Assembly: GCA_016839815.1 (NCBI GenBank)
Contig: JAEOTM010000036.1
Location: 1 to 39,235, forward strand
Direction of reading: 5' to 3'
DNA from: Candidatus Hodarchaeota archaeon
GTDB taxonomy: Archaea > Asgardarchaeota > Heimdallarchaeia > Hodarchaeales > Hodarchaeaceae
DNA length: 39,235 nucleotides
Shown: in pieces, positions 1,142-37,210 of the stretch
Layout of the letters: every line of letters begins with the position of its first letter
Numbering within the stretch: position 1 is the stretch's first letter
The notes under the pieces: generated by a model
What the model saw: only the letters and a program-made list of their open reading frames with translations
What the model was told of the DNA's origin: nothing
The model's database searches: none
Made by a program: the position numbers and the translations under genes

Positions 1142-4018
1142 TTGAGAACAAACCCCATTCTTCACTCTTTACTTCATATATATTTAGAAATAATCTCTAG
1201 ATCGCTAGATGAGAATCCAATGACCAGTGAATGGAAAGATATTTTTGGATTGATTACCAACATCAGAAATAGGTTACTTGAGTCATGTAGTTTATCTTCT
1301 GGCAAGAAGCTTGAATTTGTGGATCAATTTCTCCTTCAATTAACGGTCTTATGGGTTTTACAAAAACATCGCTTCTTTAATAATGATAAAAATTATTTTA
1401 ATAATATGTTTCAACTAATTGCCCAAAAATCTGCTGGCATTGCTTTCAATACAATCAATGATTTTATGGATTCTTTCCTAACAAGATTAATAGCATTAGA
1501 AGATTTTCAAATCAGTCAGGATTCAGATTTTGGTAGATTGCGAGGGTGTAAATCAGCTATCTTTATCGATCTGGTCTCTATCAAACAGAAAACTGACTTT
1601 CCAAATGATCTGTACTATTTAGATTCTGATAAATCGCACACGTCCAAGACGGAATCTCTGACTGCAGGGATATTCTCTATTCTCGATCGATTTGATAATC
1701 AGATCACTGGTGCATTTTTAGGATCATTATACGAAAAATTGATATCTTCCGAAAAGAAAAGGCAAGGAGGAGTATATTATTCACCTGTTGAACTAACTGG
1801 TTATATCACCCGCTATTCATTACGAGTATATTTAATGGATCAGTTAGGATCAATGGATTACTCTATGTCGGATGATATTTCTATAATCATTAAATCCCTT
1901 GACAAACCTGGAATTTTAAGATTGTATGAAAAATTAAAGGATATTTCAATCTTGGATCCTGCTGTTGGTACTGGACAATTCTTGGAAAGTGCTGCTGATG
2001 AATTGTTATTAGTGTATTCAATGGTAATTAAAAGATTTAAAGAATTACAAGAACCAATGATCTTAAATGATAATATGGATCAATCTGACAATATTATTCA
2101 CAGTGTAGACTATACAAAGGTACAAGATAAAGCAGAAACTCAATTTTATTTACTTAATTTCTTGATTTTTCCAAAATCCTTGTTTGGAATTGATATCGAC
2201 CCTTTCGTGATTCCTTTTACCAAAGCACGATTGTTTATCTATTTAGCACAATATTTTAAGGAAAATATGACACACCATTCCCTAATTCTACCTTTTCAAT
2301 GTAATCTCCAAATTGGAGATGCACTTCTACTTAATTGGAAAGATGCTTTTAAACCAATGTCAACCTCTCACGCCTTTTTTTCGCTCATTCTTACCAATCC
2401 TCCCTATATTGGAGAAAGTAATAATAAGGATATTTTTCGAACATATTCTCTTGCCTTTCCAAGTTACTATGAAGGAAAACTTGACATTTGGTATTTATTT
2501 TTCCATTTAGCAATAAATCAAGTAGTACCAAAAGGTATTGTCTCGTTTCTGACTACAAATTATTGGCTAACTGCTTCGGGAGCTTCTAAATTACGAAATA
2601 GAATATACTCCGAAACCTATATTTTGGAATTTATTGATTTTGGTGAAAATCGCGTATTTCAGGGAGCTCATGGGATTCATTCTAGTGTTATTATTATAAA
2701 AAACCTTAAGGCTCAAAATCCGACAATTAACTGTGTTTCCTATACGAATAAGATTCCTAAAGGAGAACATCTCTTAGATCATATATCCAATCAATTAACT
2801 TTCCAGATTGATCAAAAAGACCTTACTCTGGACAACTGGGATAAATATTTTCACTTTATCCCTCCGGATGTCTCCCATATATTAAGAAAAATTATAGATA
2901 ATTGCTCATCACTAAAGGATTCGACTTACAGTGTGAAAGAGGGGTTAATTACCGGTTTAAATAGAATTAATAAAAGGCAAATTCAGAAATATGGTTATCC
3001 TTCAGCATGGATAAATCGTGGAATATTTATCTTCAATCTAACAAATGAAAATGACTATAACACTCTTGAAACCTTTACTATTGAAGAAAAAAAGTATTTG
3101 AAACCTATTTACAAAAATTCTTCAATTGAACCGTATTCAACGCGGGTTCAAACCCACTTACGCTTATTGTATCTTGTTAAAAGTAATCTAGACCTTTCAA
3201 TCCTTCCTAATATAAAGAAACATCTTGATCACTATCATAAGGCACTTCGTAATTCACTCGATCATCCTCCTTACCTCAATCGTCCCCGAAAACCAGAGAT
3301 CTTTCTTTCTCCCAAACTGGTTACACCCCAAAGATCCCGAACAACGCGATTTGCTTATAATTGCACTGAATGGTTCGCCACACAAGATGTCTATTTCATA
3401 TGTGAAAGAGGAAAATCTAAGCGAAAACTTAAGATCCTTCTTTTATTTTTACAATCTAAGGTTTCTTTTTTCTGGTTTTCATGGATGGGGAAAAAAAAGG
3501 GCTCTCAATTAGAATTTTTTGGAGAATCTATTTCTAATTTTCCTATTCCAAAAGTAGTAGATAATCCGAACCTTTTGGTACGAATAACAGAATATTTAAT
3601 ATTTTTTTATACGCTTGACAAGGTACCAAGAGAGTTCCATCATATCTGGGCTTACTTTGAGGAGAAAATTGCATCTTTAATCACCTATACACATTTTTTC
3701 ACAGATTTGATTCTCTCCAGCAAAAATAAACACCAATCCTACAAAGATATATCGGATAAATTACTCCAAAATCTTAAAGAAATTAATATTGAGAAATTCT
3801 TGACCTTTCGATACTCAATTTTTGCATCATATGATCATGAATCTGCTAATAAAGATGAAAATTCTGATATAATCGAAACTTATCTAAAAATTATCGGGGA
3901 ATCATACAATAGAATCTCTAAAGATAAGCAAATCATGGATTTCTACAATTATGTAAATACTTTTTCGATTGTTAAACAAATTAACAATTTTTATGCATCA
4001 AAAAACCATAAAAAATGA
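1142..4018 (+). CDS. Large gamma-class N6-adenine DNA methyltransferase (Eco57I/TaqI-like, with TaqI_C-type target-recognition region); likely true start ATG 1220
   Basis: LGSLYE..GVYYSP (motif X), ILDPAVGTGQFL (motif I), LFGIDID, LTNPPY (motif IV), WLTASGASKLR, FIDFGENRVF, C-terminal PKLVT..RFAY..QDVYFI..LQSK pattern. No convincing PD-(D/E)xK nuclease domain seen. Confidence 0.85.
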   Translation: MRTNPILHSLLHIYLEIISRSLDENPMTSEWKDIFGLITNIRNRLLESCSLSSGKKLEFVDQFLLQLTVLWVLQKHRFFNNDKNYFNNMFQLIAQKSAGIAFNTINDFMDSFLTRLIALEDFQISQDSDFGRLRGCKSAIFIDLVSIKQKTDFPNDLYYLDSDKSHTSKTESLTAGIFSILDRFDNQITGAFLGSLYEKLISSEKKRQGGVYYSPVELTGYITRYSLRVYLMDQLGSMDYSMSDDISIIIKSLDKPGILRLYEKLKDISILDPAVGTGQFLESAADELLLVYSMVIKRFKELQEPMILNDNMDQSDNIIHSVDYTKVQDKAETQFYLLNFLIFPKSLFGIDIDPFVIPFTKARLFIYLAQYFKENMTHHSLILPFQCNLQIGDALLLNWKDAFKPMSTSHAFFSLILTNPPYIGESNNKDIFRTYSLAFPSYYEGKLDIWYLFFHLAINQVVPKGIVSFLTTNYWLTASGASKLRNRIYSETYILEFIDFGENRVFQGAHGIHSSVIIIKNLKAQNPTINCVSYTNKIPKGEHLLDHISNQLTFQIDQKDLTLDNWDKYFHFIPPDVSHILRKIIDNCSSLKDSTYSVKEGLITGLNRINKRQIQKYGYPSAWINRGIFIFNLTNENDYNTLETFTIEEKKYLKPIYKNSSIEPYSTRVQTHLRLLYLVKSNLDLSILPNIKKHLDHYHKALRNSLDHPPYLNRPRKPEIFLSPKLVTPQRSRTTRFAYNCTEWFATQDVYFICERGKSKRKLKILLLFLQSKVSFFWFSWMGKKKGSQLEFFGESISNFPIPKVVDNPNLLVRITEYLIFFYTLDKVPREFHHIWAYFEEKIASLITYTHFFTDLILSSKNKHQSYKDISDKLLQNLKEINIEKFLTFRYSIFASYDHESANKDENSDIIETYLKIIGESYNRISKDKQIMDFYNYVNTFSIVKQINNFYASKNHKK

Positions 4019-4031
4019 GAATTGATTTTTC

Positions 4032-4047
4032 AAGTATCTAGATACTT
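4032..4047. repeat. Perfect 16-bp palindrome between convergent genes (possible terminator or protein-binding site)
   Basis: AAGTATCTAGATACTT with T-runs on both sides, inside the 63-bp gap between convergent ORFs. Confidence 0.5.
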
Positions 4048-4081
4048 TTTCATCCCTTGTTAATTAGTCTAAAGTTAATCA

Positions 4082-5020
4082 TTAGTTGAAATAATAATCT
4101 AATGTTCGTGAATCAGCTTGAGAAAGAGTTTGATTCATTCGATTTCTGATAGTTTTCACATACGATGATTGCTTCAGGATGAAGTCATGATTTTGAGCAG
4201 TAAGAAACATCCAGACATTCCACAGAGCTCGGTTTGTCCATCCTTCAGCTCCTGGTATTTGAAGTGATCTGAAACAATGAAGAAAAGGTGGTTTATAGGT
4301 CTCGAAAATCTTTGGTGTTAACCATTTCCTTGTTTGTGTAGAACGTCGGACTCTAGGAATAGATCTCGACCCTTCTGGAGTATAACAGTCCCCAATAGCT
4401 GCATTTTTTCTCCATCCAATCCAATCTATTGTTTGGAGATAGTCTTTGAATATAACCTGGTGAAATGGACTCCCTAATCCAAACCCATGGAAATTTTGTG
4501 TCGTTAAGGAACGGAATTTGGCTATCCATGCAGCCACATCGTAAACACTTCCCTTTTCATTGATTTTCAAAGAAGGAACCATCCCTCCCAACCCAATGTA
4601 GGGACCAGAGTAATCAGTTAGATTGATATTCGGAAAGTGCACAACTGGCAATACTGGATGATCAATTTTCTTATCCAAAGTAGACCAATTCTGCCATGAT
4701 TTCTTCCTTTTACCAATAACATCCAAATTGATAATAGTATCCCCATCATTCACTCCTACATCCTTAAGAAATGTAATATACTTATTCAAGGGGATATCTA
4801 TTCCAGTTTGATGTGCACTATAAGCACCTGAATCGATCATTATTGGGCCATCGTATGAGAAATAATCATGTAGACCTTGGTCTTTAATTTTCTTACTCCA
4901 CTTTTTAAATTGCCAAAATGAGAATAAAATCCCATATTTACGTTTAAGCATGAACTGATTAATTAAATCTTCATACATCCAAGGAAAAAACCCATTAACG
5001 ATACCCAAGTACAATTTCAA
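4082..5020 (-). CDS. tRNA-guanine transglycosylase (TGT)/DpdA-like TIM-barrel base-exchange protein, paralog 1
   Basis: TGT-family motifs in the expected order: MIDSGAYS, INLDVIG, LPVVH, IGLGGMVP, FHGFGLG, TIDW (nucleophile Asp position), RALWNVW (normally RxxHN). Confidence 0.75.
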   Translation of the reverse strand: MKLYLGIVNGFFPWMYEDLINQFMLKRKYGILFSFWQFKKWSKKIKDQGLHDYFSYDGPIMIDSGAYSAHQTGIDIPLNKYITFLKDVGVNDGDTIINLDVIGKRKKSWQNWSTLDKKIDHPVLPVVHFPNINLTDYSGPYIGLGGMVPSLKINEKGSVYDVAAWIAKFRSLTTQNFHGFGLGSPFHQVIFKDYLQTIDWIGWRKNAAIGDCYTPEGSRSIPRVRRSTQTRKWLTPKIFETYKPPFLHCFRSLQIPGAEGWTNRALWNVWMFLTAQNHDFILKQSSYVKTIRNRMNQTLSQADSRTLDYYFN

Positions 5021-5136
5021 AACGAATCTTTCCCCTAAATGTTTATTATTGAGTATTATTCAAGGATGTAATTAATCCACTAGGGGATTGTTATCTTCCC
5101 TGAAACATAGGTACATATAGAAAAAAGTGCTAATCG

Positions 5137-5616
5137 ATGTCATCACCGAAAGGTCTTCTCATCATCTCATGTGGGAAGAAAAAGTCCCAAGAACTCAAGC
5201 ATCGTGCGTTAAGGGCGGAGGATGCATATAAAGGTCCTATGTTTCAAGTAATTAATAAAGCAAAAAGGGAAAAGAGGTGGCCTAATAGTCTGAAACTAGG
5301 AATTATCTCAGCTAAATATGGATTCTTACGATCAGATGATGAAATCAACGATTATGATCTATTTATGTCAAAAGGAAGAGCGGAAGAACTTAATGCACAA
5401 GTCATTAGCGGAATTAGAGAATGGCATGAGACAGAAGCATTTTCGATAATCTATGTTCTCACGGGTAAAGACTACTTAAACAGTGTGCACGGACTAGCTG
5501 AATTCATTAATACAGAAGTAAGGATTGAGAATATGGGAGGATTAGGAATTGGCCAGAGAAAACTTGTTGATTTTATCAATTCATTAAGTACTATTGGATT
5601 AGTAAACAGAGGCTAA
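5137..5616 (+). CDS. DUF6884-like (YaaA-related) protein
   Basis: LLIISCGKKK, AEDAYKGPMF, IISAKYGFL, I.DYD..M and LTGKDY match my recollection of the DUF6884 signature (IISCxxxK..A.dlY.g..F..ilSAkyGl..i.pYd). Confidence 0.7.
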   Translation: MSSPKGLLIISCGKKKSQELKHRALRAEDAYKGPMFQVINKAKREKRWPNSLKLGIISAKYGFLRSDDEINDYDLFMSKGRAEELNAQVISGIREWHETEAFSIIYVLTGKDYLNSVHGLAEFINTEVRIENMGGLGIGQRKLVDFINSLSTIGLVNRG

Positions 5617-5622
5617 ATTAAA

Positions 5623-6666
5623 ATGAGTTTTGCGTTGGGAACTCCTATCAGTGCCCGAGTACGACCTTGGCAGTTCGATTGGATTGTAAAACCTGATTTT
5701 CTAATGATTTCTGCGGTTGATTTTATGCAAAATCCAAATCTTTTTGAAACAATAAAGAAATCAGGCATTCATGAATATCTAGAATGGGATGGGCCTCTAG
5801 TTTGTGATTCTGGAGCGTTTTCAGCTCTAAACAGAAAGAAGAAGATGAACCTGAGTCTACAGCAGCTCAAAGTTTTTTATCGTGAACTTTCAAGGCAGGA
5901 TCCTGAAATCATCAAGATAACATTAGACTACCCTGATAAGGATATTTTGTCGAATTACTTAGAATTATTACCTTATGAAATTCAACCGGTCATTCCCCAC
6001 AACCAATTACATCTTTTGGACGAAATTGTATCAGAAGCTGGATTTTCTGACTGGAGTTTTATCGGACGCTTAGTACCTCTTATGAGAGGAGGGAGCGGGT
6101 ATAAAAATCGATTATTTAAGGCTCTAAATAATTTCAAGAGAGAAATGCAGAATTTTTCCTCGTCTGAGATAAGTAAGATATGGGCACTGGGAGTAGGTGC
6201 ACCGAGTATTCTACACGAAGTTCTATCTGCTGTAGATGGATGTGATTCTTCGCGGTGGAGAATTACAGCCTCAAATATGATACTACTTCCTTTCGGGGGA
6301 GAAAGGGGAATTGGGAGTAAGACGAAGTGGAGAGGGACTCATCATCGTATTGAAGAAGGAATGGAAAAGAAATGTGTAATCAATATCCTTAACCAGATTG
6401 ATATCCGCTCGGGAGGATTAGAAACCCTTGATAAGTCATTACAGGTGAATGCTTATCCAAAACAACTTAAAAATAATTTTGAAGTGAACCTACCAAAAAT
6501 TGGAGATTTGATCGGTAAATTACGGAATGCTGACCAAAATGTTTCAGTTTATGAATTAGAATTGCTTTTGAGGAGTTCTGGGAATCTACGCCTTATTTTC
6601 AATTACATATCAGCGTTATATTATAAATTAGACACCTCGTTTAAAAAGCATATTCAGGATAACTAA
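5623..6666 (+). CDS. TGT/DpdA-like TIM-barrel base-exchange protein, paralog 2
   Basis: LVCDSGAFS, ITLDYP, IQPVIP, FIGRLVP, IWALGVG, DGCDSSRW, RLIFNY. Starts 6 bp after the DUF6884-like gene. Confidence 0.72.
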   Translation: MSFALGTPISARVRPWQFDWIVKPDFLMISAVDFMQNPNLFETIKKSGIHEYLEWDGPLVCDSGAFSALNRKKKMNLSLQQLKVFYRELSRQDPEIIKITLDYPDKDILSNYLELLPYEIQPVIPHNQLHLLDEIVSEAGFSDWSFIGRLVPLMRGGSGYKNRLFKALNNFKREMQNFSSSEISKIWALGVGAPSILHEVLSAVDGCDSSRWRITASNMILLPFGGERGIGSKTKWRGTHHRIEEGMEKKCVINILNQIDIRSGGLETLDKSLQVNAYPKQLKNNFEVNLPKIGDLIGKLRNADQNVSVYELELLLRSSGNLRLIFNYISALYYKLDTSFKKHIQDN

Positions 6667-6697
6667 TTATTATCAAAATATTGGGGATTTTGAAATC

Positions 6698-30983: not shown

Positions 30984-31802
30984 TTATTTAATCTGAACCT
31001 CTAACATGCGTTTTTTAAATATTAATCCAAAATGATGATGTACATTAGAAACAAAACTATATGGATACCCGTATGGTCTTAAAGTCTTCTGATTCTGTAG
31101 CCATACTTTTTCTCCTAGAAATTTGTACCATTTATTAAGACGTAGAGGGAGTTCAAAGGCAAGAGGAATCATTTCTCCTTTATCCCTAACATTTTGGATG
31201 AATACAACCAGATGAGCCTCAGATGATAGGAGAGAATGTATATTTGCGAAGATTTTAACTAATTCATGTAAGAAATCCTCTTTATCTTCTATCATTCCTA
31301 AATCTAAAGGATTTTGGCCATATTGGAGATCCAGACCTTTATCTAAGCGCTCTTGCTGATTATAATCTTTTTTTTTCTTTAGGATCCTCCAATACGGAGG
31401 GGATGTAATACAGAGAGAGAATGATTCATTTTTTAATGTGGGTAAGATTTTTCGTAAATCGCCCTCATGAACAGGGAATTTAGTTCTAGATTTTGCCGTT
31501 TTCGCATATTTAGAGTATAGCTCAATTCCCCTCCCTAATCTTCCTGTATTTTCACATGCAACTAATGTCGAACCCGTTCCTAAAAACGGATCTAGAACTT
31601 TTTCACCTGGTTTTGTGAAGAATTTGATGAAATCCTCAATCATAGATGGAGGAAACGACGCAGGATGTAAATCGATCTCATGAGAAATGTCACTTGGCTT
31701 CCCATCAGCGATAAACCATGATTTTGTAAAGCGAATCCATTCTCTCCCCGAGAGAGTGTTAAGTTTATTTCGAGGATCAACATTTTCAGAATCTTTCATC
31801 AA
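30984..31802 (-). CDS. Small DNA methyltransferase, probably N4-cytosine (SPPY; motif I precedes motif IV)
   Basis: LNTLSGREW...TKSW, HPASFP, VLDPFLGTGST, GIEL, ITSPPYW. Confidence 0.85.
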   Translation of the reverse strand: MMKDSENVDPRNKLNTLSGREWIRFTKSWFIADGKPSDISHEIDLHPASFPPSMIEDFIKFFTKPGEKVLDPFLGTGSTLVACENTGRLGRGIELYSKYAKTAKSRTKFPVHEGDLRKILPTLKNESFSLCITSPPYWRILKKKKDYNQQERLDKGLDLQYGQNPLDLGMIEDKEDFLHELVKIFANIHSLLSSEAHLVVFIQNVRDKGEMIPLAFELPLRLNKWYKFLGEKVWLQNQKTLRPYGYPYSFVSNVHHHFGLIFKKRMLEVQIK

Positions 31803-31867
31803 ACTTCAATCTCACAATTCAATTTTCTAAGTTAAAAATATATAATAAAAATTTACGGTGTAAAATT

Positions 31868-32515
31868 ATGGCGAAGTTTCAGTGTATCATTTTTGACGTC
31901 GATGGAACTCTCCTTGATAATACAAATTCAATCATTGCATTATTTCAAGACATCGTTCTAAAATATCTTGGATCAGAGAAAAGTATGACCAAAAAGGAAG
32001 TATTATCCTTATGGGGACCTCCTGGGGATGAAATCTTTAGAAATGTGTTTCCACCTAATATAGTCGATGAAGCATGGACTGAATTTTTATCTAAATATCG
32101 TGAAACTCATACAAAACAAGGTTTTTTTTCTGCTAAAGAAATAGAAGCTTTTCGACAATATGTGGAGTATCTTGCGATATTTACAGGAAAGTCACGTTAT
32201 ACTAATACGATTTCACTAGAAGAACTCAAATTAACTGGTTGTTTTGACCTTATATACACTGGAAGTGATGTAGAAAATTCGAAACCTTATCCTGATGCTC
32301 TTTTTCGAATAATGGAGGATTTAAATCTTCAAAAGGAGGAAGTAATCTTTATCGGTGATAGCCATCTTGATATAATTGCTGGAAAAGCTGCTGGTGTAAC
32401 AACTGCGGGAGCTGAATGGGGTGCGGTTGAATTGGATAAACTTCATAAGAGTAATCCTGATCATACTTTTAAGACTCCAGATGAATTTTTTCAGTTTATC
32501 AAAGGTAGCTTATAA
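31868..32515 (+). CDS. HAD-superfamily phosphatase (Gph/PpaX-like)
   Basis: FDVDGTL, FTGK, KPYPD, IGDS..DI.AGK.AG. Confidence 0.92.
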   Translation: MAKFQCIIFDVDGTLLDNTNSIIALFQDIVLKYLGSEKSMTKKEVLSLWGPPGDEIFRNVFPPNIVDEAWTEFLSKYRETHTKQGFFSAKEIEAFRQYVEYLAIFTGKSRYTNTISLEELKLTGCFDLIYTGSDVENSKPYPDALFRIMEDLNLQKEEVIFIGDSHLDIIAGKAAGVTTAGAEWGAVELDKLHKSNPDHTFKTPDEFFQFIKGSL

Positions 32516-32530
32516 TGTGGTTCTGATTCT

Positions 32531-34675
32531 ATGACGAAAAGGATGATAGAATCGACCTTCCCAATCATTGATGTAAGTCGCCTTGCTATTCCAGAGCGAA
32601 GTAGCTATAAACCCATTTATCAGATATCTAAGTGGTTTGCACGACGATCCTCGTCGATTTTCCGAGCGATTCTTCTTGGCTGTGTTCTTAATCCTTCTGA
32701 CAATCTTATGAAAGAGTTTTTTAAGACAAAGGGGACATTCAAAGAAATTACAGTTCTTGATCCATTTATGGGAGGGGGAACGACTATTATAGAAGCTTTA
32801 AGACTCAATATGAAATGCATCGGAGTAGATATTAATCCTGTTGCTTGGTTTATTACTAAAACTGAAAGTATATTGGTTGATCTATCAGAACTACAAGGAG
32901 TTATTTCAAAGTGTGAAGAAGTTCTGGAAAATAATGTGAAACAGTGGTACAAGACCACCTGTCCAGAATGTATGAACTCTGCTGATATCATCTACACACA
33001 CTGGGTCAAAGTTCTGAATTGCTCAACGTGTAACCGTTCTATTCCAATGTTTCGTAACTTTCTTGTGAGTTATCTTGCTAATGATCCAATACTTCTTTGT
33101 CCCTCATGCTACGCGGTATTTCCTTCATCAAAACCTCTTAATTCTGATATAAATTGTCCTCACTGCAATGAAAAATTTAATCCAAGTATTGGCTATCGAA
33201 TGGGTAGAAAATTTCTTAAATGTCCTGATTGTGGAGATACAACTCATATTTTGTCCACTATCCAGAGAAGTAAGACTCCCCTCTCCAGTAAACCTTTCGC
33301 TATTGAAGGATTTTGTCCTCACTGCTCAATTGAGAATAGAAAGGATACCCAAATTTCCAAATCAAACTACAAATTTATCAAAAAGTTTTCAAAAAAAGAT
33401 TATGAACTCTATAATGAAGCTGAAGAGTATTGGAAAAATCATTCTAATAAATATCTCTGGCCAAAAGAAGATATCCCGATTGGTATTGCTACGAAAGTTC
33501 TTATAAATCATAATTACACAAAATGGTCTGATTTGTTTACTTCTCGTCAACTTTTAGCGTTAAGTCTTATTCTAACTCATATCGATGAGATTGATAATGA
33601 AATTCTACAAGAAATGCTCTTAGCAGCATTTCTTAACCTTTTGAATCATAACAATTGCTTCACACGCTATTCGCCCAAAGGACAGAAGGTAGAAGGGATA
33701 TTTTCTCGTCATGATTTTCATCCATTATCTACATACACTGAAAATAATGTTTGGGGAACAAGATATGGTAGAGGGACATGGATTAAATGTCTTAATAGAT
33801 TATTGAAAGGGAAACAATACAATCTCACCCCCTATAATTTTGAGTATTACATGAGTAAAGAGAAGATCGCTAAGCATCGTAAAGTTATAACTGGAAAAAT
33901 TGATGGAGTCGTGTTCAAAGGGGATATCAAGGATTTTCCTGATGATAGTAGTAATTTACTCCTGTTATGTCGTGATTCGGAGCATATTCCCTTGGTTAAA
34001 AATACAGTTGACCTATTAATCTCCGATCCTCCATATTCAGATAACGTAAATTATTCAGAATTATCTGATTTCCTATATGTTTGGATTCGCATAATACTTA
34101 GCAAGAGATATTCAATTTTCGAGTTTGTTGAGACTCCTAAACGTGAAGAGGCTATAGAAACAAAAAATCGAGAGACTGACTACTATACAAAGTTAGCAAA
34201 TATTTTCTCAAATTGTAAAATGCATCTTAAACCTGAAGGATTATTTGTTTTTACTTTTCATCATGCAAATCCTGATACGTGGTTAAAACTCGCTGATTTG
34301 CTTGAGAATTCAGGTTTTTATACAGTTAAGACTCATGCTTTGCAGAGTGAAGCTTTGAATGTATTGAATATTCAGAACAAGAAAGCTATTTCTTATGACT
34401 TGATCATCGTTTGTAGAAAGAAAGTTAAGGAAGATAAAGAAGCGCTTCCTTTGTCAGAATTTATGAGATGTCTAGAAGAAAATTTCAATAAAAAGATTAC
34501 ATATTATTCTAAGATCGGACTTTCGATACAAGCAACAAATAGGATTGTTGTTTTTTTTGGGGAATATTTTGAACTAATATCAAAAGTACAACCAGTCAGA
34601 AGGTCAATTCCCATGTCAAAACTCGAAATATGGAAAAGTTGTAAAGACCTTCTTTCCTCTCGAATACTTACCTGA
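32531..34675 (+). CDS. DUF1156/COG1743-type adenine-specific DNA methyltransferase with Zn-ribbon insertion
   Basis: KWFARRSSSIFRAILL, VLDPFMGGGT, GVDINPVA, six CxxC pairs, LFTSRQL, ISDPPYSDNVNYSELSDF.YVW, FTFHH. Confidence 0.88.
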   Translation: MTKRMIESTFPIIDVSRLAIPERSSYKPIYQISKWFARRSSSIFRAILLGCVLNPSDNLMKEFFKTKGTFKEITVLDPFMGGGTTIIEALRLNMKCIGVDINPVAWFITKTESILVDLSELQGVISKCEEVLENNVKQWYKTTCPECMNSADIIYTHWVKVLNCSTCNRSIPMFRNFLVSYLANDPILLCPSCYAVFPSSKPLNSDINCPHCNEKFNPSIGYRMGRKFLKCPDCGDTTHILSTIQRSKTPLSSKPFAIEGFCPHCSIENRKDTQISKSNYKFIKKFSKKDYELYNEAEEYWKNHSNKYLWPKEDIPIGIATKVLINHNYTKWSDLFTSRQLLALSLILTHIDEIDNEILQEMLLAAFLNLLNHNNCFTRYSPKGQKVEGIFSRHDFHPLSTYTENNVWGTRYGRGTWIKCLNRLLKGKQYNLTPYNFEYYMSKEKIAKHRKVITGKIDGVVFKGDIKDFPDDSSNLLLLCRDSEHIPLVKNTVDLLISDPPYSDNVNYSELSDFLYVWIRIILSKRYSIFEFVETPKREEAIETKNRETDYYTKLANIFSNCKMHLKPEGLFVFTFHHANPDTWLKLADLLENSGFYTVKTHALQSEALNVLNIQNKKAISYDLIIVCRKKVKEDKEALPLSEFMRCLEENFNKKITYYSKIGLSIQATNRIVVFFGEYFELISKVQPVRRSIPMSKLEIWKSCKDLLSSRILT

Positions 34676-34681
34676 TTTTGA

Positions 34682-35458
34682 GTGTATAGCATGAAATCCG
34701 AATCGAAATACAAGTTAGTTATAGGAGATGTTAATGAAACATTGCCAGCTATAGCTAAGGATCGATTCTTTGATTTAATAATTGCCGATCCTCCATTTGG
34801 GATTTCTTTTAGTAAATCCTCACACGAATATGGAGCTGATGACTATCACTTGTATAATGATGATTTTACACCTGATTCATATTATGAATTCTCTAAAAAG
34901 TGGGTTCAAAATAGTTACAATGCTCTTAATCCCAACGGCAGTCTTTATATTATCTCTGGATGGACAAATCTTCAGTATATTCTAAATGCACTCGAAACTA
35001 CTGATTTTCACACGTTAAATCATGCAATCTGGCATTTTTCCTGGGGAGTGTACACTAAACGTCGTTTTGTTACGAGCCATTATCATATCTTGTTGTTAGT
35101 AAAAAACCGTAAAAAATATCAGTTCGTAAAACAGAAACATTACGATGAAGATGTCTTTTTTTGGAAGGAATATAATAGAGGGAATGATCCACATCGAATC
35201 AAAGGACACCCCTGTCAGCTTCCTATTGTCCTTCTTGAAAAGCTAATTCTTACATCGAGTTCTGCAGGTGATCTAGTTGGAGATGTATTTTCTGGCTCTG
35301 GAGGAACAATATTAGCTGCACGCAGGACTGGAAGAGATGTTATTGGGTTTGAATTGAGAGAAGAATACAAAAAAATTATCGAAGAGAAAGCTCTGTTTGG
35401 TAAGTCCCTAATTAAGGAGTTTCAGAATACAACACTAGATAAATTTCTAGATAAATAA
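34682..35458 (+). CDS. Beta-class amino (N6A/N4C) DNA methyltransferase; likely start ATG 34691
   Basis: DLIIADPPF, L.PNGSLYI, HPCQLP..LLEKLI, DVFSGSG, GFEL. Confidence 0.9.
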   Translation: MYSMKSESKYKLVIGDVNETLPAIAKDRFFDLIIADPPFGISFSKSSHEYGADDYHLYNDDFTPDSYYEFSKKWVQNSYNALNPNGSLYIISGWTNLQYILNALETTDFHTLNHAIWHFSWGVYTKRRFVTSHYHILLLVKNRKKYQFVKQKHYDEDVFFWKEYNRGNDPHRIKGHPCQLPIVLLEKLILTSSSAGDLVGDVFSGSGGTILAARRTGRDVIGFELREEYKKIIEEKALFGKSLIKEFQNTTLDKFLDK

Positions 35459-35491
35459 CCATTTCTTACTCCTTTCTCAGAATGGAGTGTG

Positions 35492-37210
35492 CTAAAGAAA
35501 ACTTTCATAAGAAGAGCATTTGTATAAATTGATTATTTTTTTCTCAATCTTCTCTCTTACTACAGGTAGCATGGGAGAGGAAAGAAAAAGCTGTTCGATT
35601 GACTTTATATGATCTTCATTCTTTTCTGGAGGCTTGATTGGTAAACGTTTCAAGTTTTTAATTGAAATAGCATTAGTATATCTAGATCCAAGGTTAAATT
35701 GATTTTCATAATACCAGTTCATAAGACGAGAATTTAGTATAGCTAATATATAATAAAGGAAACTGGGATTTTGTTGCCATTGTTTTTTTAAACGAATATT
35801 ATAAACATTCTGGGTAGTAAAAGCATTTTTTAAGTCAATTGCACCGCAAGGAGACTGCTTTATCTTCTGTAAGACGATTTTAGGAGATTTGTATATGTCT
35901 TTATTTTTCTTGGATTTAAATTTAATCGAATCATTGAAATAATGACATGATTTAATATCATATTGATCAAAATCATCACCTGTAAGAATGGGAATAGTGT
36001 GCTGTGATGATTTTATAGGACTTATCAAGAAATTTGTTTGTAAGTGATCTTTATATAGAATTTTATGACATTGAGAACATTCAATATTGGGCTTACGACT
36101 GGATAATGGTACCCACATACCACATGAAATACAATACATAACCCCTCCTTTTTTACTCAGTTCTTCACCACGTTGAATCGTAACATATTCTTCTAATGAC
36201 ATTGTATCTTTTTTAATAAGTTTTAATAACTGTAAAAGTGTATTATCAGAGATTTTTGTGAATATATAATCAGTATTAGTCATATAAACATTTTGATGGA
36301 TTTTTATCTTCTCGTTAATCAGAATTTCATTGCTTAATTCTTTCATATCGATACGATGAGCAACTAAGGAAATAAATTCCTGAGTAACTTCATTGAATAG
36401 ATCATGAAAGATCAATGTTTTTATGTGAAAGTTATTAAGAATGAACTTCCGTAGATTTACATATTGATTTGAACGTGAAAGGTTCTTAGGAAGATATAAC
36501 GCTAAGTACCCAGCATTTGGTTTTAACATATTAGTACTTTGATATATAAATAGTTCAAATGAATTCAAATTTCGTTTTGAACCTGATAAATTAAATTTTC
36601 TGTAATAACGAATTCGTTCTGCTTTACTAAGATGGCTTCCCCAGGGAGGGTTCCCAATTATCAAATCAAATCCCTTAAATCTCTTAGGGATCGTTTTCCA
36701 AGAACTGAAATCGCTTTCTAAAAAATTTCCTTCTCTAATATTGCCCTCCAACCATGCTGATACTGTATTTTTGTCAATCTCCCGAATATTTTCATTCAAA
36801 ATTTTGTGACATGCTCTTAATGTCGCAATATCTAATTCCATTCCAAATAAATTTTGTAATATCACCTTTTTAGGTAAGATTGAGGATTTCATGTTTAATT
36901 CATGTAGTCGCTTTGATATAGAGTTAAAAATGTGACACAGAGCATAATATGAGGTAAGAATGAATTCTCCTTGTCCAACAGATCCATCCAATATTGTCAG
37001 ATTTGAAATATAAGATTGAATTGCTCTTAAAATTTCGATATTGTCGGACATAAGGAGAGCTTTTAGAGATAAAGATGCATCATAACAACGACGGACTTGT
37101 GTTTTGATTACCTGTTCTAGGACACGATTTGTTAGTTCTGATGCTAGTTCAGTCGGAGTATAGAATGCTCCATAGAGTTTTTTGAATGTATTTTTCTCTA
37201 TAGGAGACAA
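35492..37210 (-). CDS. Gamma-class N6-adenine DNA methyltransferase (TaqI/Eco57I-like) with a Zn-finger insertion in the specificity region
   Basis: GAFYTP, ILDGSVGQGEF, LFGMELD, IIGNPPW, PKIVLQKI, YILAILNSRLM.WYY, LKRLPI; CISC-x14-CSQC. Confidence 0.87.
   Translation of the reverse strand: MSPIEKNTFKKLYGAFYTPTELASELTNRVLEQVIKTQVRRCYDASLSLKALLMSDNIEILRAIQSYISNLTILDGSVGQGEFILTSYYALCHIFNSISKRLHELNMKSSILPKKVILQNLFGMELDIATLRACHKILNENIREIDKNTVSAWLEGNIREGNFLESDFSSWKTIPKRFKGFDLIIGNPPWGSHLSKAERIRYYRKFNLSGSKRNLNSFELFIYQSTNMLKPNAGYLALYLPKNLSRSNQYVNLRKFILNNFHIKTLIFHDLFNEVTQEFISLVAHRIDMKELSNEILINEKIKIHQNVYMTNTDYIFTKISDNTLLQLLKLIKKDTMSLEEYVTIQRGEELSKKGGVMYCISCGMWVPLSSRKPNIECSQCHKILYKDHLQTNFLISPIKSSQHTIPILTGDDFDQYDIKSCHYFNDSIKFKSKKNKDIYKSPKIVLQKIKQSPCGAIDLKNAFTTQNVYNIRLKKQWQQNPSFLYYILAILNSRLMNWYYENQFNLGSRYTNAISIKNLKRLPIKPPEKNEDHIKSIEQLFLSSPMLPVVREKIEKKIINLYKCSSYESFL

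Follow-up and report, generated by a model that had tools for sequence, protein, structure and literature searches.

The contig JAEOTM010000036.1 of a Candidatus Hodarchaeota archaeon (39,235 nucleotides, hereafter the window) carries five contiguous genes between positions 1142 and 9106, in which two genes of the tRNA-guanine transglycosylase (TGT) type and a DUF6884 gene lie between two DNA methyltransferase (MTase) genes. MTase-1 (1142..4018, + strand) encodes a gamma-class N6-adenine DNA methyltransferase with a TaqI_C-type specificity domain and is the variable part of the cluster. It converges, across 63 bp, with TGT-A (4082..5020, − strand), whose 312-aa product is predicted to be a DpdA1-like guanine transglycosylase that is free of Zn and of a PUA domain. 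A divergent spacer of 116 bp (5021..5136), presumed from sequence and synteny to be a bidirectional promoter region, separates TGT-A from the DUF6884 gene (5137..5616, + strand), which encodes a YaaA/DpdC-related protein, a candidate nitrile-converting or base-flipping partner. The DUF6884 gene is followed after 6 bp by TGT-B (5623..6666, + strand), encoding a putative divergent DpdA-type transglycosylase of 347 aa, and, after a further 31 bp, by MTase-2 (6698..9106, + strand), a fused Type III Mod-like pseudo-dimer. An earlier note on this DNA had described these open reading frames (ORFs), their strands and the 116-, 6- and 31-bp gaps, and all of them were found at those positions; it had also reported no dpdB-K, que or nuclease gene, and none was seen among the scanned ORFs of the window. 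Purifying selection acts on all five genes (pN/pS 0.11-0.41). A promoter scan of 5021-5136 that covered bacterial sigma-70 sites only, in an archaeal host, gave hits at chance level.

The predicted structures of TGT-A and TGT-B were confident (pLDDT of 91 and 89, respectively), and in these models both proteins are TIM barrels of the TGT superfamily. For TGT-A, the VIA Z scores were 24.5 for the archaeosine TGT (arcTGT) 1iq8, 20.9 for DpdA 7ui4, 19.4 for bacterial TGT and 17.4 for Cap10; the corresponding values for TGT-B were 19.6, 17.4, 17.4 and 14.9. Five TGT-family entries headed both lists, with Cap10 the weakest of the family, and the best unrelated TIM barrels scored about 12.5. Because these scores span arcTGT, DpdA, bacterial TGT and Cap10, RNA and DNA enzymes are not separable by fold alone. 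At the sequence level, both proteins fell below every Pfam and NCBIfam cut-off and were matched by no PADLOC model, and sequence searches of the PDB barely picked up their relationship to TGT.

Profile searches and phylogeny were more discriminating. TGT-A was matched by PHROG 887 (E 1e-20), and its profile aligned with the validated DNA-modifying DpdA proteins of CAjan, 9g and STSV2 at 1e-18 to 1e-20 over most of their length, whereas arcTGT was reached at 4e-12 or weaker and mostly in its N-terminal part; nothing was found by the TGT-A profile in nt-1 or HVTV-1. The TGT-B profile ranked STSV2 DpdA first (2e-15), and tblastn searches of phages with TGT-B gave no match. In a quick LG+G4 tree of 72 rows rooted on E. 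coli Tgt, TGT-A was the sister of phage DpdA1 (CAjan/9g/Rosebush), outside rather than within that clade (SH-aLRT 98), TGT-B fell in the next larger group with STSV2 DpdA (SH-aLRT 97), and the arcTGTs stood apart. Approximately unbiased (AU) tests, from which three long or duplicate rows were left out, rejected a forced grouping with arcTGT for both TGT-A (p 9e-5) and TGT-B (p 0.010). A forced sister relationship of TGT-A and TGT-B, as a recent duplication would give, was not rejected (p 0.059), but the free tree did not place them as sisters. Structural matches to DpdA2, DpdA3 and DpdA4 (nt-1, phiST and HVTV-1), subfamilies outside the tree, were weak. Sequence separates the two proteins from arcTGT better than fold does, and clustering with tRNA TGTs, which the earlier note had named as counter-evidence, was not observed. 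The assignment of both TGT-fold proteins to the DpdA type rather than to tRNA TGTs, which the earlier note had proposed, is thus supported by profiles, tree and AU tests. Consistently, neither protein has a Zn site (no CxCxxC) or a C1-C3/PUA domain, and the genome encodes its own arcTGT (C127) and ArcS (C24) separately, away from the locus.

Both proteins keep the three active-site aspartates. The active-site residues of Salmonella DpdA are D95, F99, D130, H181, G206-G207 and D256 (PMC10164549). Matched by motif correspondence, since the Salmonella sequence was outside the alignment, the counterparts in TGT-A are D63, Y67, D100, H128, G145-G146 and D199, which are invariant or nearly so across 40 homologues. 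Hence TGT-A has the complete set of catalytic aspartates (D63, D100 and D199) together with the His and Gly-Gly base pocket. TGT-B keeps invariant catalytic aspartates (D62, D102 and D208; 54 homologues) as well as F66, and its pocket is rebuilt: an invariant Pro125 replaces His/Gln, and G148-R149 places Arg149 at a Gly/Ser position, in the loop that reads the 7-substituent. Since both proteins keep the aspartates, they do not form a QTRT1/QTRT2-type pair, in which one subunit is without them. By these residues, TGT-B seems to be another functional enzyme, of different specificity, rather than an inactive partner; binding of a carboxylate or an amide by Arg149 is speculation. A complex prediction for TGT-A and TGT-B scored 0.00 and has no bearing either way.

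The DUF6884 protein matched its Pfam family above the cut-off (E 6e-13) and the PADLOC DpdC model over part of the model (4e-6), at half the length of a full DpdC. It also matched the candidate defence model PDC-M57A (1e-11) and carries an invariant Cys12 within a CxxxK motif, together with a SAxYG motif; solved structures gave no sequence match to DUF6884. The family is related to YaaA, and its member YfjM binds DNA lesions, including abasic and RNA-base lesions (PMC11701544). In a survey of dpd clusters, DUF6884 was assigned to dpdC (10.1101/2025.02.24.639861). Moreover, the 689-aa DpdA of the Paenibacillus plasmid pART37 has a DUF6884 domain at its N-terminus (E 3e-11; L112:1563-5537), and in that dpd cluster the fusion gene is followed by a second TGT-like gene, with YhhQ, QueC/D and DpdJ alongside. 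This fusion is the strongest tie of DUF6884 to DNA base exchange, and together with the PADLOC match it supports the earlier view of the DUF6884 protein as an accessory factor, specifically one that is related to DpdC. Homology of DUF6884 to the ArcS core (DUF5591) had been expected, but the profile alignment of the two was confined to the CxxxK..Y motif (E 0.027, probability 1.8%); the layouts of the two families are best described as a parallel arrangement at motif level.

The locus is a fixed, vertically inherited chromosomal site across a genus of Hodarchaeales, not a mobile island. TGT-B was found in 23 of the 24 genomes of the order, and its orthologues are confined to the order among 400 Asgard genomes. 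TGT-A was present in 18 of 22 genus genomes, and the four gaps comprise three contig ends and one 1.4-Mb assembly. DUF6884 lies directly upstream of TGT-B in all 21 genus loci, and MTase-2 follows TGT-B in 19 of the 21, either directly or past a major facilitator superfamily (MFS) gene; its distribution matches that of the TGT-A/TGT-B pair. Next comes YjbQ (the YjbQ/UPF0047 gene, 9204..9623, + strand, in the window), usually with TFIIB; the site is recognisable by this constant right-hand neighbour, which is accompanied by TFIIB and a 157-aa gene. On the left, a profilin-like gene (688-1056) is constant within the MTase-1 clade, and because of this gene and of homologues labelled Hodarchaeales or Heimdallarchaeota, the host is identified as an Asgard archaeon, as had been suspected from the sequence. 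In 16 loci an MTase lies on the other side of the module as well. In the clade in which that MTase is of the SPPY type, DUF362 and MFS genes are added, and DUF362 takes the position of the 116-bp spacer by synteny. In the 70% complete genome G008, TGT-A, TGT-B and DUF6884 are kept and MTase-2 was not found.

Several variants of the locus were also observed. TGT-B of G008 is lengthened to about 574 aa (L072; G008:C1 about 2081000-2082600), which suggests a rearrangement or an assembly break. Variable inserts include a Sir2 gene in three genomes (L065:9778-10527), an EamA transporter before DUF6884 in two (L070:13309-14367) and the DUF362 and MFS genes of the one clade (L001:4283-9873). The occurrence of two different transporters by the module may hint at base import.

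The supply of a 7-deazaguanine base was examined at the genome level. QueC was found in none of the 22 genus genomes, compared with 56 of 61 other Heimdallarchaeia, whereas a YhhQ/Vut_1 transporter was found in 20 of 22, compared with 2 of 61; in the present genome it lies at G000:C42. QueE was not found in this genome (89.5% complete), and its two QueD-like genes may serve pterin synthesis. An apparent QueC at G000:C112 was dismissed as ThiI-like by sequence and lies outside any preQ0 cluster. YhhQ is a preQ0 transporter, and the entry of salvaged preQ0 into DNA has been proposed (PMC5699537). With QueC lost and a YhhQ importer gained, the base would be salvaged; the genes for a supply route are thus in place, and transport by this route is probable. 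Tandem QueC-like genes were seen in the only genome of the order that keeps QueC (L038; G023:C540:10097-11325).

Among the flanking MTases, MTase-1 matched Eco57I (E 3e-23) and TaqI_C (4e-5) in Pfam. Its start is probably the ATG at 1220, because the closest orthologues are 929-934 aa long, and the orthologues keep motif I (DPAVGTG) and motif IV (NPPY). No nuclease family matched residues 1-193, and a Type IIG model aligned only from residue 412. The slot is interchangeable: MTase-1 occupies it in nine genomes and a non-orthologous SPPY alpha-class (N4C-type) MTase in seven.

MTase-2 matched the Pfam family N6_N4 (E 1e-38), and its two halves align with each other (hhalign probability 99.0, E 3e-18), with a deletion of 46-54 columns in the C-terminal copy. 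The N-terminal copy has lost its catalytic motifs and has an almost invariant target-recognition region (20 rows), and the C-terminal copy keeps an intact DPPF/Y before FxGxG, as in beta-class Mod, and lacks the recognition region. The Mod structures 4zcf, 6k0w and 7dsu match both halves. In the EcoP15I Mod dimer, one subunit recognises the target and the other methylates it. MTase-2 resembles this dimer (4zcf) in that both halves are Mod-like and differs in that the subunits are fused, each without the half-function it does not need, and in that the block holds no Res. No Res subunit was seen beside MTase-2, and YjbQ comes next wherever the locus extends that far. This architecture suggests a Mod dimer joined into one chain that has a single fixed target and lacks Res, as is usual for orphan methylases. 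Neither this build nor the exchange of QueC for a YhhQ importer had been noticed in the earlier note.

In the whole genome there are about 25 DNA MTase genes (19, 10 and 2 family matches), of which a further four lie in this window, and adjacency of an MTase is for that reason weak evidence of coupling. As MTase-1 is moreover interchangeable, the cluster does not establish a coupling between methylation and base exchange. MTases recur by related TGT-like genes on a virus-like contig and in other Asgard genomes, and these recurrent neighbours support a DNA target more than a shared mechanism. Across the whole genome, CCGG and CCWGG were depleted to 0.48 and 0.74 of expectation, respectively; this is consistent with two m5C methylases (C49:12601-13602 and C196:20978-21913) and names no target for the module. 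A second cluster, at 30984-37210 of the window, contains four DNA methyltransferase genes (three of N6/N4 type and one of Eco57I/TaqI_C type), with no nuclease among the scanned neighbours. On the virus-like contig of 145 kb (L003:2579-20924), a TGT-A homologue with 42% identity lies by two MTases, a helicase and sugar-modifying genes; this contig is a possible donor or recipient. Additionally, a SNF2 helicase that scores best with HmaA lies about 7 kb from an m5C methylase (L115:1442-4807; G000:C49), probably as part of an Hma- or DISARM-like defence locus.

DNA containing 7-deazaguanine has been described in two settings: the restriction islands of bacterial Dpd systems, and viruses in which the base serves to evade nucleases. 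Viral DpdA1 (CAjan, 9g and Rosebush; PMC6884629) resembles TGT-A in being a TIM barrel of about 310 aa with the same motifs, with neither Zn nor PUA and with no DpdB. Unlike viral DpdA1, the present genes are archaeal, chromosomal and vertically inherited, occur as two deeply diverged copies with a DUF6884 partner, lack accompanying preQ0 synthesis genes and share only 26-30% identity with the viral enzymes, and the TGT-B pocket is rebuilt. The archaeal viruses STSV1 and STSV2 provide a second comparison. Their DpdA adjoins a small CxxxK protein, ArcS2 (DUF5591), and a DNA MTase is nearby; preQ0 synthesis genes were not seen in the STSV2 region examined, STSV2 DpdA is the best reference match of TGT-B, and STSV2 DNA carries dCDG (PMC10516641). 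The module differs from both viruses in that its helper is DUF6884, its transglycosylases are two and its setting is cellular. Elsewhere, two other Asgard families have a conserved chromosomal pair with the STSV2 layout, consisting of a DpdA-like gene of about 375 aa and a stand-alone gene for DUF5591, the ArcS core (L076:7052-8777, L077:6568-8531 and related loci).

Bacterial Dpd systems (Salmonella Montevideo, 7ui4; PMC10164549) share with the module a cellular DpdA-type enzyme and a DpdC-related protein, and the Paenibacillus dpd cluster also shares the DUF6884-DpdA fusion, the second TGT-like gene and YhhQ. Unlike those systems, the present locus is fixed rather than a mobile island, and it gave no match to bDpdA models. 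No linked dpdD-K restriction gene was found in the 21 syntenic loci, and five unlinked helicases scored best with other families. With neither DpdB nor dpdD-K, the module falls outside Dpd systems as defined by their genes, while it appears to resemble their modification half. ArcTGT and ArcS offer the best solved match of both barrels and the same catalytic aspartates, but arcTGT has the C1-C3/PUA domains and the Zn site that are missing here, forms a separate clade and is encoded, like ArcS, elsewhere in the genome. For Type IV CBASS (cyclic oligonucleotide-based antiphage signalling system), no linked CD-NTase or QueC-like Cap9 was seen in the syntenic loci, and the QueC family is absent from the genus. 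Twin TGT-like genes have precedents in the phage Megan and in Paenibacillus and Halomicrobium plasmid clusters. In the Microbacterium phage Megan (L093:670-2543), tandem DpdA-like genes stand with a full preQ0 pathway and form a sister pair in the tree, which TGT-A and TGT-B do not. In Kariarchaeaceae-like genomes (L075:4481-10534 and L074:4160-9603), TGT-like genes occur with nucleases, either as a tandem TGT-like pair with an N6/N4 MTase and a PLD-type nuclease or as one TGT-like gene with UvrD and a PD-(D/E)XK nuclease; both loci look like real defence islands.

On balance, we favour the reading that the locus is a chromosomal module, passed on vertically, which marks DNA with a 7-deazaguanine base and has no cognate nuclease. 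From the genes, residues, ancestry and linkage described above, we infer its substrate, product and purpose as follows. The YhhQ-family transporter encoded elsewhere would import a 7-deazaguanine base; preQ0 is the likeliest candidate, as the genus is unable to make it. TGT-A, whose residues and ancestry are those of the phage enzymes, would excise a target guanine via an intermediate in which Asp199 is bound covalently to the DNA, while Asp63 serves as acid/base, and would insert the base into DNA in the manner of phage DpdA1, which likewise lacks DpdB. Given its homology, the DUF6884 protein could act through Cys12 on the nitrile of dPreQ0, giving most likely the amide dADG, the product of DpdC, or a carboxylate if the reaction goes further. 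TGT-B would be active as well, as a transglycosylase that prefers a different base or site, and Arg149, speculatively, could suit a 7-carboxy or 7-amido base. MTase-2 would methylate one fixed motif independently. The flanking MTases form part of a common DNA-modification neighbourhood, probably on a shared transcript, and are probably dispensable for exchange. The likely purpose would be to shield host DNA from foreign or viral nucleases or to serve as a heritable regulatory mark. A more ambitious version, which we hold to be possible though doubtful, is a genus-wide, nuclease-free epigenetic layer in which a pair of domesticated transglycosylases of virus type would place different 7-deazaguanine bases in the chromosome (or one would place and the other remove them), drawing on an imported micronutrient, beside the fixed-motif methyl mark of the fused Mod pseudo-dimer.

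Several observations weigh against this preferred reading. DpdB (PF14072) was absent from all 24 genomes in a search whose positive control worked, and the PADLOC DpdA models match neither TGT-A nor TGT-B. The closest solved structure is arcTGT, ahead of DpdA 7ui4, arcTGT N-termini rank above phage DpdA1 in the TGT-B profile search, identity to any tested DpdA is only 23-30%, and the quick tree has long branches. Moreover, the genes are present but dispersed in the sister family, the genus-wide linkage may stem from one ancestral event, so that the genomes are not independent samples, and the importer is already accounted for by the tRNA archaeosine pathway alone.

Some of these points would suit domesticated viral-DpdA enzymes that have since turned to RNA as their substrate (a different tRNA position, rRNA or some other stable RNA), with the MTases as bystanders: near-universal vertical inheritance at one site resembles that of a housekeeping gene, arcTGT is the best structural match, and an MTase-rich genome makes adjacency cheap. 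We regard an RNA target as unlikely, given that both proteins lack a PUA or Zn-binding domain, that canonical arcTGT and ArcS are present, that grouping with arcTGT was rejected, that a non-orthologous DNA MTase occupies the same slot in the other clade and that relatives of DUF6884 bind DNA (PMC11701544). Slightly less likely still is a role in repair or mark removal, in which the TGT-like enzymes would restore guanine from a damaged or modified base or strip viral 7-deazaguanine, and DUF6884 would bind the lesion or the abasic intermediate. No preQ0 would be needed, which agrees with the lack of QueC in the genus and of QueE in this genome; the rebuilt TGT-B pocket and universal retention also fit, as does the binding of abasic and RNA-base lesions by YfjM (PMC11701544). 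Against this, TGT-A retains the Gly-Gly loop of preQ0 inserters, the importer is present and the DUF6884-DpdA fusion points towards dpd chemistry. We know of no TGT-family repair enzyme that has been described.

It is also conceivable, if improbable, that the five genes act as one machine, with exchange relying on or guided by the methyl mark of MTase-2, or the other way round, so that one motif would carry both marks, and with TGT-A and TGT-B perhaps acting as a heterodimer. The position of MTase-2 behind TGT-B in 19 of 21 loci, its almost invariant recognition region, its distribution parallel to the TGT pair and the MTase on the other side in 16 loci would all be expected of such a machine, but G008 keeps TGT-A, TGT-B and DUF6884 with no MTase-2 found, the genes are dispersed in the sister family and MTase-1 is interchangeable. 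The single module joining exchange and methylation that the earlier note had envisaged is not borne out as stated: MTase-1 is replaced in seven genomes, the genome contains about 25 DNA MTase genes, and the linkage, although kept across the genus loci, is lost in the sister family. The note's own alternative, a restriction glycosylase whose TGT-like proteins excise guanine from unmethylated foreign DNA while the MTases protect self, seems very improbable. A conserved block with no nuclease, the MTases flanking the TGT pair, the match of DUF6884 to PDC-M57A and the nucleases near distant Asgard homologues speak for it, but restriction loci are as a rule patchy in occurrence and quick to change their specificity, whereas the present block stays fixed and is nearly invariant in the MTase-2 recognition region. 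In addition, the TGTs are kept where MTase-1 is swapped or MTase-2 is not found, and the general-base aspartate and the base-exchange pocket are intact, which, with near-universal vertical inheritance, makes for a poor fit.

The chemistry proposed here is of the already known DpdA/DpdC kind, and the module is to that extent not the new kind of system that the earlier note had suggested. The novelty lies in a form, seen here in Asgard archaea, that has a fixed chromosomal site, carries no nuclease and depends on salvage, and also in the pocket of TGT-B and the fused Mod. Our literature searches, whose coverage was incomplete, found no paper describing this cluster. All proteins of the module are small enough for standard tests in E. 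coli. The fused Mod pseudo-dimer offers a single-chain test of the division of labour in Type III methylases, TGT-B may owe a new base specificity to its rebuilt pocket, and the occurrence of DpdA together with a small cysteine protein is relevant to how STSV2 obtains dCDG. Asgard archaea are close relatives of eukaryotes, and Hodarchaeales are among the closest. If the module works as we propose, the host's own DNA may carry an undescribed mark, which would suggest that 7-deazaguanine bases can be kept for protection or regulation and that the mark depends on a scavenged nutrient. Should the genus-wide epigenetic layer prove true, it would represent the first 7-deazaguanine mark in cellular DNA that serves regulation rather than restriction.

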